A stretch of DNA of 64,000 nucleotides, taken from contig OZ059899.1 of assembly GCA_964057225.1 (NCBI GenBank), positions 310,001 through 374,000 of the forward strand, in the 5' to 3' direction. Position 1 is the stretch's first letter, and each line of letters opens with the position of its first letter. The notes beneath the pieces are model-generated. The model was not told the origin of the DNA. It did not search any database and saw only the letters and a program-made list of their open reading frames with translations. Positions 43,901-50,908 of the stretch are shown one piece after another. The translations under genes were made by a program, and so were the position numbers. Origin of the DNA: Auanema rhodensis (taxonomy: Eukaryota; Animalia; Nematoda).

Positions 43901-46206
43901 GCGAGTTACATACCAAGTGCACATCACGTGTACATTTAATTAGCATAAATTAAAGTTCACGTAAATTTCAAAGTCATGGTTACCATGCACCAATATCAAT
44001 AAAAATTTGTTTTTAGACTAATATGGACATGGGGAATCTAATTTTGAAAACCGCATCTCTTTGTCTTTCACGTGAAGCGAGTTACATACCAAGTGCACAT
44101 CACGTGTACATTTAATTAGCATAAATTAAAGTTCACGTAAATTTCAAAGTCATGGTTACCATGAACCAATATCAATAAAAATTTGTTTTTAGACTAATAT
44201 GGACATGGGGAATCTAATTTTGAAAACCGCATCTCTTTATCTTTCACGTGAAGCGAGTTACATACCAAGTGCACATTTAATTAGCATAAATTAAAGTTCA
44301 CGTAAATTTCAAAGTCATGGTTACCATGCACCAATATCAATAAAAATTTGTTTTTAGACTAATATGGACATGGCGAATCTAATTTTGAAAACCGCATCTC
44401 TTTATCTTTCACGTGAAGCGAGTTACATACCAAGTGCACATCACGTGTACATTTAATTAGCATAAATTAAAGTTCACGTAAATTTCAAAGTCATGGTTAC
44501 CATGCACCAATATCAATAAAAATTTGTTTTTAGACTAATATGGACATGGGGAATCTAATTTTGAAAACCGCATCTCTTTATCTTTCACGTGAAGTGAGTT
44601 ACATACCAAGTGCACATCACGTGTACATTTAATTAGCATAAATTAAAGTTCACGTAAATTACAAAGTCATGGTTACCATGCACCAATATCAATAAAAATT
44701 TGTTTTTAGACTAATATGGACATGAGGAATCTAATTTTGGAAACCGCATCTCTTTATCTTTCACGTGAAGCGAGTTACATACCAAGTGCACATCACGTGT
44801 ACATTTAATTAGCATGAATTGAAGTTCACGTAAATTTCAAAGTCATGGTTACCATGAACCAATATCAATAAAAATTTGTTTTTAGACTAATATGGACATG
44901 GGGAATCTAATTTTGAAAACCGCATCTCTTTATCTTTCACGTGAAGCGAGTTACATACCAAGTGCACATCACGTGTACATTTAATTAGCATAAATTAAAG
45001 TTCACGTAAATTTCAAAGTCATGGTTACCATGCACCAATATCAATAAAAATTTTTTTTAGACTAATATGGACATGGGAAATCTAATTTTGAAAACCGCAT
45101 CTCTTTATCTTTCACGTGAAGCGAGTTACATACCAAGTGCACATCACGTGTACATTTAATTAGCATAAATTAAAGTTCACGTAAATTTCAAAGTCATGGT
45201 TACCATGAACCAATATCAATAAAAATTTGTTTTTAGACTAATATGGACATGGGAAATCTAATTTTGAAAACCGCATCTCTTTATCTTTCACGTGAAGCGA
45301 GTTACATACCAAGTGCACATCACGTGTACATTTAATTAGCATAAATTAAAGTTCACGTAAATTTCAAAGTCATGGTTACCATGCACCAATATCAATAAAA
45401 ATTTGTTTTTAGACTAATATGGACATGGGGAATCTAATTTTGAAAACCGCATCTCTTTATCTTTCACGTGAAGCGAGTTACATACCAAGTGCACATCACG
45501 TGTACATTTAATTAGCATAAATTAAAGTTCACGTAAATTTCAAAGTCATGGTTACCATGCACCAATATCAATAAAAATTTGTTTTTAGACTAATATGGAC
45601 ATGGGGAATCTAATTTTGGAAACCGCATCTCTTTATCTTTCACGTGAAGCGAGTTACATACCAAGTGCACATCACGTGTACATTTAATTAGCATAAATTG
45701 AAGTTCACGTAAATTTCAAAGTCATGGTTACCATGAACCAATATCAATAAAAGTTTGTTTTTAGACCAATATGGACATGATGAATCTAATTTTGAAAACC
45801 GCATCTCTTTATCTTTCACGTGAAGCGAGTTACATACCAAGTGCACATCACGTGTACATTTAATTAGCATAAATTAAAGTTCACGTAAATTTCAAAGTCA
45901 TGGTTACCATGCACCAATATCAATAAAAATTTGTTTTTAGACTAATATGGACATGGGGAATCTAATTTTCAAAACCGCATCTCTTTATCTTTCACGTGAA
46001 GCGAGTTACATACCAAGTGCACATCACGTGTACATTTAATTAGCATAAATTAAAGTTCACGTAAATTTCAAAGTCATGGTTACCATTAACCAATATCAAT
46101 AAAAATTTGTTTTTAGACTAATATGGACATGGGGAATCTAATTTTGAAAACCGCATCTCTTTATCTTTCACGTGAAGCGAGTTACATACCAAGTGCACAT
46201 CACGTG
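1926..46206 (+). repeat. 176-bp tandem satellite array, ~252 monomers (centromeric/heterochromatic-type satellite)
   Basis: Consensus CAAAGTCATGGTTACCATGCACCAATATCAATAAAAATTTGTTTTTAGACTAATATGGACATGGGGAATCTAATTTTGAAAACCGCATCTCTTTATCTTTCACGTGAAGCGAGTTACATACCAAGTGCACATCACGTGTACATTTAATTAGCATAAATTAAAGTTCACGTAAATTT (176 bp, 57 G+C). Most monomers differ from it by 0-3 substitutions. Centromeric function is inferred from monomer size and homogeneity only. Confidence 0.98.
46202..46206 (+). repeat. Left target-site duplication (ACGTG)
   Basis: Satellite ...CACATC-ACGTG|element. The same ACGTG appears at 50907-50911, followed by TACATTT. Confidence 0.75.
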
Positions 46207-46297
46207 CATTTCCGCGCCGTGACCTCATTCCGCGCCGTGACCTCATTCCGCGCCGTGACCTCATTCCGCGCCGTGACCTCATTCCGCGCCGTGACCT
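46207..46297 (+). repeat. Five tandem copies of the 18-bp GC-rich unit CATTCCGCGCCGTGACCT at the LINE 5' end (possible internal promoter monomers)
   Basis: Copies at 46207-46225 (one extra T), 46226-46243, 46244-46261, 46262-46279 and 46280-46297. The last four are identical. Confidence 0.95.
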
Positions 46298-46548
46298 CAA
46301 CGTGAGCGGTCGTTTGCTGTCAATCAATAGCTGCTGTTCAAGTTTACGCCGGACTGGTTTTTTCAAGGTACGCTACTTTTTTTCTGTTTTTATACATTTA
46401 TTCTAATTTACTTTCATTTTTTTCTTTCTTGTTCATTACTCACTTTTTTACTTATCTTTCTCATTTTTATCACCTATCTTTTCTCCATTTTCACTTGTTT
46501 TTATCTCTCTATTTTTCCTACTTTTATTCACTTTTCTTCAATATTACC

Positions 46549-47604
46549 ATGTCAGTTGTAACAAAAGATTTTTTTACTGAAACACTTGATGTTCTTTCCA
46601 AATCTCTTCGTGATTCTTTTTCACAACTTTCTGCTGAAATTAAAAGCGAGCTGAACAACATTAAAACCAATGTTGCGGCTAATGAAATGCGTATTAAAAA
46701 TCTCGAAGACGATTTTAAGTTACGTATTGAGGGTTTAGAAAAGAAATTTCTCAATGTATCAAAATCTATTGTTACTTCTACCTCTCAATCATCCTCTTCT
46801 ACTGTTCTGTGTCAGGTTCAAAAAGTTAGATCTGAGGAGTCAAAGTTTTCCTATCGTTTGAATAGAGCGGTGTGGTTTCGTGTTCCCCACGACTCATCCG
46901 AACTACCCTCGGACCCCACTTCTCTCCTAAAACTTGTCGTTGAAAAATCTAACGACTCTACTTTGACTTCTCTCATTAACAGCAACCAAATTACTATAAC
47001 CCGTTCAACTCTAAAATCTAAATCTCTTGGTCCTCTTGTAATTTCATGTTCAACAGTTGATATACGTGACAAAATTATTGATATCATTAAGTCCAACAAA
47101 GCGAAATGCTTTGCTTGTTTGTCAAAAACTTTTATTCGCCGCGACTATCTTCCTTTCGAGGTAGAAATAGAAAAAAAACTACGTGAGGAAGCTAAAAATA
47201 AAAATCTGGACAATGATGAATCAATTTACCTTGTACGCGACCTTAAACTTATCAAAGTTCTTCGTAAACCAACTTCACCCTCTATTCATGTGTTCTCAAA
47301 CATTAATGTTTCTCAAAATGTCTCCAGTCTCTGTCCTGTGGTCCAAAACGACCCTATCGTCTCTTGTCCGTCTGTGTCCGACACTGTTGTAATATCTAGT
47401 CCGCCTTGTAAATCTGGTAGGAATAGCCGCTCAGCGGGTAGATCCAAACCTCTTTCTACGGTTGAGAGATTTTCAATCAGCCCCAGAAAGAGGAAAAATC
47501 CCCCACGCTGTACTAAAACCAATTCCGAGTACCATACCAGATCTAAAAGCGGTTCTAATATAACATCTCAACCTGAGTCTGATACGAACAGGTTATTTCG
47601 TTAA
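46549..47604 (+). CDS. LINE ORF1 protein (351 aa): N-terminal coiled coil, putative RRM/CTD-like region, basic Ser/Arg-rich C-terminal tail
   Basis: The first ATG is at 46549 (ACCATG context); the track start at 46429 is a TTG inside a pyrimidine tract. Heptad-like segment LSAEIKSELNNIKTNVAANEMRIKNLEDDFKLRIEGLEKKF. Segments AVWFRVP, GPLVIS and FIRRDY..E.EIEKKLREEAK..N...YLVRDLKLIKV resemble invertebrate CR1/L1-type ORF1 proteins. No CCHC knuckle. Confidence 0.85.
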   Translation: MSVVTKDFFTETLDVLSKSLRDSFSQLSAEIKSELNNIKTNVAANEMRIKNLEDDFKLRIEGLEKKFLNVSKSIVTSTSQSSSSTVLCQVQKVRSEESKFSYRLNRAVWFRVPHDSSELPSDPTSLLKLVVEKSNDSTLTSLINSNQITITRSTLKSKSLGPLVISCSTVDIRDKIIDIIKSNKAKCFACLSKTFIRRDYLPFEVEIEKKLREEAKNKNLDNDESIYLVRDLKLIKVLRKPTSPSIHVFSNINVSQNVSSLCPVVQNDPIVSCPSVSDTVVISSPPCKSGRNSRSAGRSKPLSTVERFSISPRKRKNPPRCTKTNSEYHTRSKSGSNITSQPESDTNRLFR

Positions 47605-50437
47605 GGCTTCACAACCTTCTACTACGTCCAGTTCCTGTGTCCCTGTTAATTTTTCTGTTCATTGTTATAATGCACGCTCTATTCTCAACAAATTTCATTT
47701 TCTTACTACTATCCATAATATTTCATCTCCTGATATCATTGCTATATCAGAATCCTGGCTTTTTCCCAATTTCCACTCTGATCATATTCCGCTCGGTAAC
47801 TATTACAATTTATTCAGAGCCGACAGGTGTACAGCCCGTGGCGGCGGCACTCTTATCTTTATCAAAAAATCAATTAACTCTACCTTACTTTCTTGTTCTT
47901 CTCAACTTTCTTCTGTTCAATACATCAACATACTCATCACTTCAATCAACACAGTCTTTTCTGTCTGCTACCGTTCTCCTTCTTCTCTTCATTCCGACTT
48001 TTCCTTCTATCTTTCTGATCTTTCTAGTCATATAAAAGCCCGTTCATTTCTCATCACGGGTGATCTCAACTTTCCTTACATCAACTGGGACCTCTGCGAA
48101 TCTTCACGCCCCTCTCCCTCCAGTATGTCTATCTTTCAATTTTTAAAAGATAACTATTCGGATCAACTGGTTAACTTTCCTACTCGGGGTAAACATATTC
48201 TAGACTACATCATCACAAATAACCCTGCTATGGTTAAAAACATACTCCGTTCTTCCCCTTTAGGTAACTCGGATCACTACTCTGTCATCTTCTCCATATT
48301 CAACAATTCTTGCGTACCTGGATCTGGCTCACTTCCTTCTTCCGTTGTCTTCCACAACAGTTCTTCTCTGTCAAATTTTTCTCAGCTTAATTTTCACCGT
48401 GCTGATTACAATATTATTAATCATTACTTGGCCAGTATCGATTTTGCTACTGAACTTTCTGATCTAACTCCTCTGGACTCCTATACTAAGTTTATTGAAA
48501 TTATTCACTCAGTTATCAAAAGGTTTGTTCCCTATAAACAGTCCAAACAAAAAAGCAAAGTCGATAAAGAAATTGCTAGTCTCTCAAATTTCATCAACAG
48601 ACTCAGCTCATCTATTTCTCCTCGAGATGAACTCTATCGCAAAAAATTGACTGTCAAGCTTGACAGGCTTCTTAAGCTTAAATCAGCGTCCGAAGAAGAG
48701 AAAACCGCCGCTCTCAACAACCCTACAATTTTTTATCGATTCTGTAGAGCCCGTCTTGGAGCATCTACTTCAGATATCCCTACCATCAAATGTGAAGACA
48801 ACATCTACTCATCCGACAGAGATAAAGCATCTGTATTCGCAAATACTTTCTTTGTCGAACCAGGTTCTTCATTCAACAAAATTAAATACCTCTCTGCAAC
48901 TCCCTCCATTATTGATTTTATAGATATTTCTCCGGATAAGGTCTACAAAGTTCTTTCACATCTTCCGCTCAGAGTCTCAACTTCTCCGGATGGAATTCCT
49001 TACTACTTCCTCAAACAATGCGCTACTTCTCTCACTCTTCCTCTTGCTTTTATTTTTCACAATCTTCTTGTTTCTTCAACTTGTCCTCTTGCCTGGAAAA
49101 AAGCCTGGATTCGTCCAATTTTTAAATCCGGCAACCGCTCTACCCCTTCAAATTACCGTCCCATTTCTCTAACCCCTAGTCTCTCCAAAGTTTTTGAGCG
49201 TCTCATTAGCGCTCCCCTTCTTCACTTCGGCATTTCCACGGGCTCAATATCTTCAAACCAACACGCTTTCCTTCCCGGGCGTAATACTGTTTCAGCTATA
49301 ACCAGCAGTCACATTGCTTGGAGATCTTCGATTGACAAAAACATCCCAGTTTTTGTTGCATTTATCGATTTTTCTAAAGCATTTGACCTAATTAACCACT
49401 CTATTCTTATCCACAAACTTCATTCCACTGGTGTTCGGGGCCCTCTCTTATCCTTCCTCAAAAACTTTATTACAAACAGGTCATTTTCGGTTTTGGTTAA
49501 TAACTCTCTCTCCAACTCCACTAACTTATTATGTGGTGTTCCTCAAGGGACTGTCTTGGGTCCTCTTCTTTTTCTTTTTTACATCAACGACATCAGTTCT
49601 ACACTTCCCGATGATGTCCACTCCACTTTATTCGCTGACGACCTTAAACTGTACAGCACCAATCCGGTAAGTCTGCAAACTGCTCTAAACTCTCTCAATG
49701 AGTGGTGCAACAACAACGGAATGATAGTCAATATCAATAAAACTAAAATAATGGTCATCTCTGACGACCACTCATTCCGAAACAACGAGGAAAGGTTTAC
49801 TTTTGGTGAGTTTTCCCTGTCTTTGGCTTCCAGCTATAAAGACCTTGGGGTTTTCACTGATCACAACCTTACTTTTGGTAGTCATATTAACACTATCAGC
49901 AACTTGGCAGCTCAAAAATGCCGCACCATTCTGCGCTGTTTCCATTCCAGATCCCCTACTCTAATGTTTAGACTTTTTTGTTGTTATGTCCGCCCCATTC
50001 TCGAATACGCATCAGTAGTATGGTCACCTCAAGATGAAAAAAACAAGAGCCGTATCGAGAACGTTCAGAAAAAGTTTTTACGAGCTGTTTTCTGTAGAGC
50101 AGGTACCTTTTGCAGTTATTCCGATCAGCTCGGCATACTGCAGGCTCAAGAATTATCAACCAGACGCTTGGTAACCGATCTGATATTTTACTTCAACCAT
50201 ATAAAAGACTCAAATACCGAGTTACATTCTAGAATTTTTACTATCAAAAAGTTTTCTCACTCCCTTCGTAGGCACCAATGGAATATCGACTTTCCTAATC
50301 TTCGAAAAAACGCATCAAGAAATGGAATCGAATACAGAGCGATCAAGACATGGAATTCCTTACCCGACAACTTGATTAACCTTGAGAAAACCAAAAGCTT
50401 CAGAAAACACCTCTACAATACTCTACAAACTCCATAA
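47564..50437 (+). CDS. LINE ORF2: apurinic-like endonuclease + reverse transcriptase (957-codon open frame; first ATG only at 48125)
   Basis: Manual translation of the 48125 frame upstream to the TAA at 47561-47563 gives the APE motifs YNARSILNK, PDIIAISESWL, FRADR..RGGGTLIFIK, VCYRSP and ITGDLNFPYINW. These continue into PTRGKHILDYIITN and LGNSDH. RT motifs: QHAF, FIDFSKAFD, GVPQG, FADD, YKDLGV. There are no internal stops or frameshifts. Confidence 0.95.
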   Translation, partial: HLNLSLIRTGYFVKASQPSTTSSSCVPVNFSVHCYNARSILNKFHFLTTIHNISSPDIIAISESWLFPNFHSDHIPLGNYYNLFRADRCTARGGGTLIFIKKSINSTLLSCSSQLSSVQYINILITSINTVFSVCYRSPSSLHSDFSFYLSDLSSHIKARSFLITGDLNFPYINWDLCESSRPSPSSMSIFQFLKDNYSDQLVNFPTRGKHILDYIITNNPAMVKNILRSSPLGNSDHYSVIFSIFNNSCVPGSGSLPSSVVFHNSSSLSNFSQLNFHRADYNIINHYLASIDFATELSDLTPLDSYTKFIEIIHSVIKRFVPYKQSKQKSKVDKEIASLSNFINRLSSSISPRDELYRKKLTVKLDRLLKLKSASEEEKTAALNNPTIFYRFCRARLGASTSDIPTIKCEDNIYSSDRDKASVFANTFFVEPGSSFNKIKYLSATPSIIDFIDISPDKVYKVLSHLPLRVSTSPDGIPYYFLKQCATSLTLPLAFIFHNLLVSSTCPLAWKKAWIRPIFKSGNRSTPSNYRPISLTPSLSKVFERLISAPLLHFGISTGSISSNQHAFLPGRNTVSAITSSHIAWRSSIDKNIPVFVAFIDFSKAFDLINHSILIHKLHSTGVRGPLLSFLKNFITNRSFSVLVNNSLSNSTNLLCGVPQGTVLGPLLFLFYINDISSTLPDDVHSTLFADDLKLYSTNPVSLQTALNSLNEWCNNNGMIVNINKTKIMVISDDHSFRNNEERFTFGEFSLSLASSYKDLGVFTDHNLTFGSHINTISNLAAQKCRTILRCFHSRSPTLMFRLFCCYVRPILEYASVVWSPQDEKNKSRIENVQKKFLRAVFCRAGTFCSYSDQLGILQAQELSTRRLVTDLIFYFNHIKDSNTELHSRIFTIKKFSHSLRRHQWNIDFPNLRKNASRNGIEYRAIKTWNSLPDNLINLEKTKSFRKHLYNTLQTP
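47596..47604 (+). promoter_or_regulatory. Candidate +1 programmed ribosomal frameshift site UUU_CGU_UAA at the ORF1/ORF2 overlap
   Basis: ORF1 frame reads TTA TTT CGT TAA; the +1 (ORF2) frame reads TAT TTC GTT AAG. This matches the UUU_CGN motif. Confidence 0.5.
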
Positions 50438-50632
50438 TGTGATCTAAATAATTAATACGAGTGTCAATTTGTTCACTTTTCATTTTGTTAATTATTTCTT
50501 ATTCCATAGTCATAACCTTGTTCTGTTTTTCTGTTCGTGACAATTGGCAACAGTTTCCTATTTTCATCCCTTCTCTACTCCTTTGTTACTTCGTTTCATA
50601 TCTTATAGACATGAGTCATACGGATTGAACGC

Positions 50633-50715
50633 AAGTTATCTCCTATTGTTAGAACGGGCTCGGCTCAACTTATGAGTACCTCCGTACCTAACAACTACCA
50701 ACAGGAGATCAGCTT
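50633..50715 (+). other. Predicted long RNA stem-loop in LINE 3' UTR
   Basis: Nested complementary pairs: ATCTCCT(50638-44)/AGGAGAT(50703-09), TTGTTAG(50646-52)/CTAACAA(50688-94), ACGG(50654-57)/CCGT(50682-85), GCTCA(50663-67)/TGAGT(50673-77). Confidence 0.6.
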
Positions 50716-50892
50716 TTATGCTGAACAAACCCCCTGTTTTCTGAAAAAAAAAGGAACTGCTTACAAATATTCACTCTCAGATTAACTTATTATTTTTATC
50801 CACCCTTCATTTTTTTCCAATGTTCTTATTGTATGGCTCTTACTCATGTAACTTCTCATTTGTACTAATACCGTTTAGCCTGTAATACTGAA

Positions 50893-50908
50893 CAATAAAC
50901 CAATAAAC
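50893..50908 (+). repeat. LINE 3' terminal tandem tail (CAATAAAC)x2
   Basis: CAATAAAC at 50893-50900 and 50901-50908. Short tandem tails in place of poly(A) are typical of CR1-clade elements. Each unit contains AATAAA. Confidence 0.85.

Follow-up and report, generated by a model that had tools for sequence, protein, structure and literature searches.

The stretch of Auanema rhodensis DNA analyzed here (contig OZ059899.1, positions 310,001 to 374,000; 64,000 nucleotides (nt), hereafter the window) carries a complete CR1-group non-long terminal repeat retrotransposon, or long interspersed nuclear element (LINE), in which open reading frame 1 (ORF1) is followed by an ORF2 encoding an APE endonuclease and a reverse transcriptase (RT). 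The junction of the two frames is real, intact, devoid of an AUG and in the +1 register, and it is likely present in multiple copies. We lean, with modest confidence, towards ORF2 being made as an ORF1-APE-RT fusion through +1 slippage of ribosomes at UUU_CGU, immediately before the ORF1 stop. By analogy with the PA-X site of influenza A virus, this sequence is a credible candidate slip site.

Layout of the junction and the candidate slip site

All features are on the forward strand and are given in window positions. ORF1 (351 amino acids (aa)) runs from the ATG at 46549 to the TAA at 47604, and its 3' end reads TTA TTT CGT TAA, with the TTT at 47596. The ORF2 frame, which is +1 relative to ORF1, is bounded by a TAA at 47561-47563 and is open from 47564 to 50437 (957 codons), giving an overlap of 41 nt (47564-47604). 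At 47596-47601, where the +1 frame is open, the zero frame reads UUU_CGN; the candidate shift site TTT CGT TAA (47596-47604), with UUU changing to UUC in the P site, lies directly 5' of the ORF1 stop and includes it. The ORF2 frame then passes through a Ser/Thr-rich linker of 22 codons (47600-47665) into the APE endonuclease domain (47666-48286; Pfam PF03372 and PF14529), marked by YNARS at 47666, SESW at 47747, GDLN at 48059 and SDHY at 48269, and reaches the RT domain (49145-49765; FADD at 49631; Pfam RVT_1, PF00078, expect value (E) 1.2e-33) before ending at 50437. The first in-frame ATG of ORF2 (48125-48127, codon 188) is downstream of GDLN, and the first AUG beyond the ORF1 stop, at 47670, is out of frame with ORF2. 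The enzyme therefore cannot come from ordinary scanning reinitiation at an AUG, and no AUG can yield the whole APE. Slippage at TTT_C would give a fusion of 350 + 945 = 1295 aa. The recomputed coordinates bear out what the first-pass annotation had described: an ORF2 frame open from 47564 without an ATG until 48125, past GDLN, the 41-nt overlap in +1, the TTT CGT TAA end of ORF1, a start of YNARS at about 47666, and a fusion of about 1295 aa with a Ser/Thr linker.

According to the proposed mechanism, a small share of ribosomes would move forward by one base at UUU_CGU, the peptidyl-tRNA-Phe exchanging its pairing with UUU for one with UUC (47596-47599) as CGU, then the stop, is decoded. If the analogy with PA-X holds (PMC3498833), the slip would occur at a frequency of roughly 1% and would leave many ORF1 proteins (ORF1p) for each ORF2 protein (ORF2p), as with gag and gag-pol. 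The element resembles influenza A PA-X and the amalgaviruses in the in-frame UUU_CGU, the cognate re-pairing to UUC, the missing downstream structure and the second ORF in +1 (PMC3498833, PMC5052127). PA-X shifts at 0.74-1.3% on UCC_UUU_CGU; the shift is abolished by UUC_AGA and is cut by 40-70% when UCC is lost (PMC3498833), and it has no evident stimulator (PMC5009743). Unlike in these viruses, the motif of the element abuts the ORF1 stop and its host is a retrotransposon, conservation of the motif has been shown in viruses only, and the overlap spans 41 nt compared with 287-968 nt in amalgaviruses (PMC5052127).

The sequence around the stop indicates where ORF2 coding begins. Among the 20 codons that follow the ORF1 stop in the ORF2 frame, 14 have T at the third position, compared with 4 and 8 at the other two positions (permutation p 0.0105). 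A frame-switch model put its best change point at 47590 and assigned 0.65 of the posterior to 47565-47609. In addition, the public sequencing run X9 contains two variants of the linker, both synonymous in the ORF2 frame and both upstream of the ACG at 47624. Taken together, codon periodicity, the frame-switch peak and the synonymous variants place the apparent entry of ribosomes into the ORF2 frame at or close to the ORF1 stop. Such an entry would suit slippage at 47596-47599 and also reinitiation there. In the latter reading, some of the ribosomes that stop at the ORF1 TAA would use a nearby non-AUG codon to restart in the +1 frame, releasing a free ORF2p as has been proposed for mammalian L1, and the motif would be due to chance; we regard this as rather unlikely, though it is a rival of some weight. 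Near-cognate codons for such a restart are at hand in the ORF2 frame on either side of the stop. The first-pass annotation had named CTG at 47573 and 47579 and ATA at 47582, all of which are present, and had missed AAG at 47603, ACG at 47624 and the out-of-frame ATG at 47670; any other codon might also serve. For the mammalian L1 element, the first ATG of ORF2 can be replaced by any sense codon with retrotransposition remaining high (PMC1965478), and AUG-independent initiation by an unknown mechanism is favored (PMC5009743). Reinitiation, however, gives no reason for the sole cognate +1 site being the last codon pair of ORF1, and RNA folding found no structure of the SART1 type (PMC5972666) 3' of the stop.

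Integrity, copies and variants of the junction

The element was present in nine public sequencing runs from three studies, of which seven distinct runs were examined; one of them is possibly the window's own source. The junction was bridged without gaps by contigs in 7/7 runs. An assembly error at this place was ruled out, no indel having been found in any of the seven. No alternative genetic code is needed, both ORFs being open under table 1. Variant positions cover four runs, and in 4/4 of these the stretch 47480-47616 was free of listed variants at a 1% share; the runs X2, X4 and X7 had a few differing letters at unstated places. The motif was kept in near-identical copies (4/4 runs), and both ORFs are unbroken across 3.9 kb.

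Two ORF2 variants about 16% apart, seen as contigs each spanning exactly 47876-49591, were observed in the public runs. The junction contig was deeper than either of them in 4/4 runs (1.3-1.7 times the larger), a contig depth being no copy number, which counts against reading too much into the excess. In run X1, the depth of the bin 47760-47920 was 44.6, with 44.63 expected without a second upstream branch. The depth excess and this bookkeeping suggest that both ORF2 variants share the junction: they seem to have ORF1 and the junction in common, i.e., to form a recombinant LINE lineage, and several copies probably carry the junction. In the divergent variant, 20 of the 25 differences listed at 49596-49708 fall on third codon positions, and this excess indicates that ORF2 is under selection as a protein. 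At least three more distant families match the element only at 47726-47766, where sister families from the host align over just 33-37 nt; one such sister family is seen as a contig of 4160 nt in run X1.

The same runs bear on another explanation, in which splicing in a minor share of the RNA takes out the ORF1 stop and brings ORF1 and ORF2 into one frame, or slippage takes place at another, non-cognate site of the overlap. Splicing would be allowed by GT donors whose phase agrees with the AGs at 47577, 47591, 47605 and 47631. Nematode splice acceptors follow a TTTCAG-type consensus, and no such context was found at any of these AGs; the element has three such hexamers, all at or beyond 49290. 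Moreover, DNA copies of a spliced template would be expected to arise, whereas the four DNA runs showed no listed joint over 47480-47800. This explanation is considered very improbable.

Junctions of related elements and weighing of the readings

The junction survey comprised 81 loci and the window, with an APE N-terminus in 22 loci, and 28 further loci, of which 10 had it, 4 of these 10 being repeats. The tallies leave out L015, L028, L052, L078, L080 and L081 (no recognizable ORF1, or Met-led or single ORFs), as well as L104 and L106, which were scored as +1 but have a Met before the APE and are not comparable. ORF1 and ORF2 were in frame across one stop at nine junctions (L001, L002, L019, L027, L047, L050, L051, L055 and L060), eight of them without a Met before the APE start. 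The stop was TAG-G at 7/9 junctions, whereas TAG-G made up 3.9% of the stop triplets present in these loci overall; one of the other two reads TAA-G, and the other, TGA-CAA-TTG, is close to the viral type I readthrough context (PMC3542737). These junctions represent about three clades, and the TAG-G test by clade gave about 2/3 (p 0.004). RNA folding found no stimulator after six of the in-frame stops. The three nematode-clade loci (L001:1406-1412, L002:817-823 and L019:500-506) all have ORF1 and an AUG-less ORF2 in frame across TAG-G, with GCA TAG G common to L001 and L002. They belong to a Meloidogyne-like clade (Shimodaira-Hasegawa-like approximate likelihood ratio test (SH-aLRT) 100), and no stem-loop was detected within 80 nt of their junctions. 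Among viral readthrough contexts, UAG-G corresponds to type III (PMC3542737), and the three junctions are candidates for readthrough of this type. The TAG-G enrichment points to readthrough, and thus to fusion, and is left unexplained by reinitiation.

Eleven further junctions had a -1 overlap. L072 ends in A_AAT_TTA_TAG, a canonical slippery heptamer adjoining the stop; such heptamers occurred in 4/6 scanned -1 overlaps, beside the stop only in L072, which makes this a weak sign. One CR1-like clade switches its junction between an in-frame stop-GA(T/C) (L027, L050, L051, L055 and L060) and -1 (L049 and L072). An AUG of the -1 ORF2 frame was seen in the ORF1 tail of L020, L067/L088, L085 and L089. 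It is located some 75-95 nt upstream of the end of ORF1, and these loci have in common the purine-rich sequence around it, which covers the ORF1 codons G-E-W/Y; L108 is arranged in the same way but lacks the AUG. In L106 (reverse strand, 575-605), a CR1 junction reads T TTA AAC TAA followed by a G6 run, and its apparent +1 register possibly results from an altered G-run.

Among database proteins that include an APE portion, the four closest (P0160/P0279, P0161 and P0163; SH-aLRT 99 with the window) all start inside the APE, as would be expected if ORF2 lacks an AUG in that clade. In P0056, an ORF1-like C-terminus runs into the APE without a stop, although the match is weak (E 0.06); single-ORF CR1s carrying an N-terminal PHD have been described (PMC4120745). 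Given these two cases, N-terminal additions to the APE appear to be tolerated in the group. Further sampling of the nematode clade was limited: its specific RT pattern yielded two loci in metagenome contigs and none in genome contigs, scanning genome contigs by alignment brought up 79 loci, one of them in this clade (L019), and 238 genomes of one family contained no further nematode junction. Nothing was found in the viral contigs scanned. Many animal LINE contigs were observed in the prokaryote genome bins G004 (68 matches), G002, G003 and G005 and in the assembly of L006-L014; they are eukaryotic contamination.

The relatives also bear on a third explanation, namely that the active family reads in frame through a leaky stop with a G after it, like L001, L002 and L019, and that the lineage of the element gained one base at the junction and can make ORF2 no longer. 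The ORF1 stop of the element does have G as its next base, the linker is shifted by one base relative to the in-frame arrangement in these three nematode relatives, the distance from the stop to the Asn is 65 nt compared with 64-136 nt in L001, L002, L019 and L047, and all runs may carry one inherited locus. This is opposed by the lack of any indel variant at a 1% share in 4/4 runs and of any gap in 7/7, by the two unbroken ORFs and by the likelihood that the junction serves two diverged ORF2 variants, both under purifying selection; such a lesion is improbable. The same stop context and one-base offset suggest that the +1 site may have taken over from an older in-frame leaky stop, of the type kept by the nematode relatives.

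In the overlap, where 14 codons were scanned, TTT_C is the only site of fully cognate +1 re-pairing. From the codon use of ORF1 itself, TTT-CGN has a chance of 0.13% at a given codon pair, e.g., the last one, and UUU_CGN a chance of about 1.6% anywhere in the 12 codon pairs of the overlap, both figures being for UUU_CGN alone and not counting other acceptable +1 motifs. Several observations weigh against slippage at this site. The chance of meeting some cognate site for +1 re-pairing in a stretch of 12 codons is 63%. CGT is not rare in the element, being the most frequent Arg codon of ORF1 (10/24), and another in-frame TTT CGT lies inside ORF1 at 46876, so the motif arises without function too. 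The E-site codon is UUA and not the UCC of influenza, although UCC is outside the amalgavirus consensus, and RNA folding predicted no stable structure downstream (z +0.8 to +1.4). The first-pass annotation had looked to conservation of TTTCGN before the ORF1 stop, and this was not borne out in the distant relatives sampled: TTT CGN was absent from the last 16 codons of all 18 distant ORF1 ends checked (L067 and L101 excluded; the closest clade is outside this sample), as reinitiation would allow, and none of these 18 ends had a clean +1 overlap. The register differs between sister CR1 lineages (-1 in L049, in frame in L060), which frame-blind reinitiation also allows. Finally, four -1 relatives (L020, L067, L085 and L089) have an AUG 6-7 codons into the open frame; hence, not all CR1 junctions depend on fusion.

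Fusion by recoding is nevertheless favored in this group, with indirect support, because AUG-less relatives carry other recoding signals, the linker reads as coding in the ORF2 frame and TTT_C is the sole cognate site. Of the earlier proposal of fusion by slippage, the recoding part is thus upheld; the motif itself was unseen in relatives, the UCC is absent and reinitiation remains a competitor. For CR1-group LINEs as a whole, we tentatively suggest, with less confidence than for the element alone, a gag-pol-like fusion whose recoding signal would change from lineage to lineage: one nematode clade would rely on UAG-G readthrough, others on -1 slippage and the present element on +1 slippage at the PA-X-type UUU_CGU.

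The element, its place among LINEs and the meaning of the junction

Apart from one insert of 4.7 kb, the window consists throughout of a 176-bp satellite, with at least 350 near-identical copies; the satellite switches orientation at about 1925 (1-1925 versus 1925-64000). The insert is the complete element (46207-50907), flanked by a target-site duplication (TSD) of 4-5 bp, and joints of the empty site (46201-50907) are present in the sequencing runs. Its 5' end has five perfect 18-bp tandem repeat units (46210-46299), and its 3' untranslated region (UTR; 50438-50907) ends with a short AATAAA-type repeat in place of poly(A). The ORF1 frame is open already from 46306, upstream of the ATG. Within the 5' UTR (46340-46548), a donor-like AG|GTACGC at about 46369 precedes a T/C-rich tract of about 170 nt that extends to the ORF1 ATG; this may be an intron or a trans-splicing signal.

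Elements of the CR1 group end in a short tandem repeat, not poly(A), and have a short or absent TSD; the AATAAA-type tail and the TSD of 4-5 bp agree with both features. The presence of APE and RT in ORF2, with no RNase H family found in Pfam at E up to 0.1, also fits this group. The best named RT matches are nematode proteins, which by itself makes a nematode the likely host, and in a quick maximum likelihood (ML) tree the RT grouped with the Ancylostoma protein P0003 and four further database proteins (SH-aLRT 99). This tree contained no named Repbase CR1 reference, and the CR1 label is our assumption from general features of the group. An early APE tree was uninformative and was dropped. 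By RT placement, the element is like nematode CR1-group proteins of Ancylostoma (P0003), Caenorhabditis (P0158, P0187 and P0191) and Meloidogyne (P0172, P0190, P0193 and P0204) and the loci L001, L002 and L019; an STSPD motif, an AUG-less APE-RT ORF2 and a homologous ORF1 are also common to these LINEs. It differs from L001, L002 and L019, which are in frame across TAG-G, in its +1 register, 41-nt overlap and long ORF1 tail.

The ORF1 product is predicted to have a long coiled-coil helix, an RRM and a C-terminal domain (CTD), followed by a low-complexity, Ser/Pro/Arg-rich tail of about 110 aa. The model of residues 1-244 (predicted local distance difference test score 87) matches human L1 ORF1p (2ykq/2yko; Foldseek E 1.7e-4), from which we conclude that this is a genuine LINE ORF1 with a tail; by predicted structure, it belongs to the L1-ORF1p-like coiled coil-RRM-CTD type listed in PMC4120745. 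It is homologous to the ORF1 of L001, L002 and L019. Sequence-only searches with ORF1 gave nothing relevant, no homologue was found among 3081 candidates searched, and the ESM Atlas returned no informative match, with scores under 0.9 only.

Recoding at a LINE junction is a known idea, since it has been proposed for Paramecium LINEs and for Dictyostelium TRE5-A and TRE3-A. In Paramecium, +1 frameshift or reinitiation was proposed for Groups 1-2 and readthrough for Group 3 (PMC5405496). The element resembles Groups 1-2 in having APE-RT in a +1 ORF2 with a short overlap and in the choice between frameshift and reinitiation being left open (PMC5405496). The Paramecium LINEs form a separate ciliate clade, however; the two ORF1 proteins examined, of 12 assigned to +1 frameshift, end in GSN and NYE, not Phe-Arg, and the available part of PMC5405496 names no shift motif. 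TRE5-A and TRE3-A are APE-type LINEs said to require a frameshift for ORF2, but in -1 and not +1 (PMC5911963). With mammalian L1 and silkworm SART1, the element has in common a bicistronic LINE RNA with low ORF2 output (PMC5972666, PMC1965478, PMC5009743), and its ORF1 fold is like that of L1 ORF1p. In both L1 and SART1, ORF2 begins with an AUG and its translation is ascribed to reinitiation, whereas the element has no such AUG. No report of a UUU_CGN frameshift motif in a LINE or retrotransposon, nor any on nematode CR1 junctions, was found in a search without most subscription literature, and PMC13343379 contains nothing on translation.

How ORF2 of a LINE is translated is a matter of debate, human L1 included (PMC5009743), and the function of PA-X-like motifs outside viruses was left open (PMC3498833). 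If reinitiation proves true, the element would have an ordinary AUG-less ORF2. If slippage at UUU_CGU proves true, this would be, as far as the literature found shows, the first instance of a transposon, or of a nematode cell, using the influenza motif. With one stop, one cognate slip site and no AUG, the element is a compact, testable cassette, and since its nematode relatives use a different junction, the in-frame UAG-G, fusion and reinitiation could be separated for a whole LINE group.

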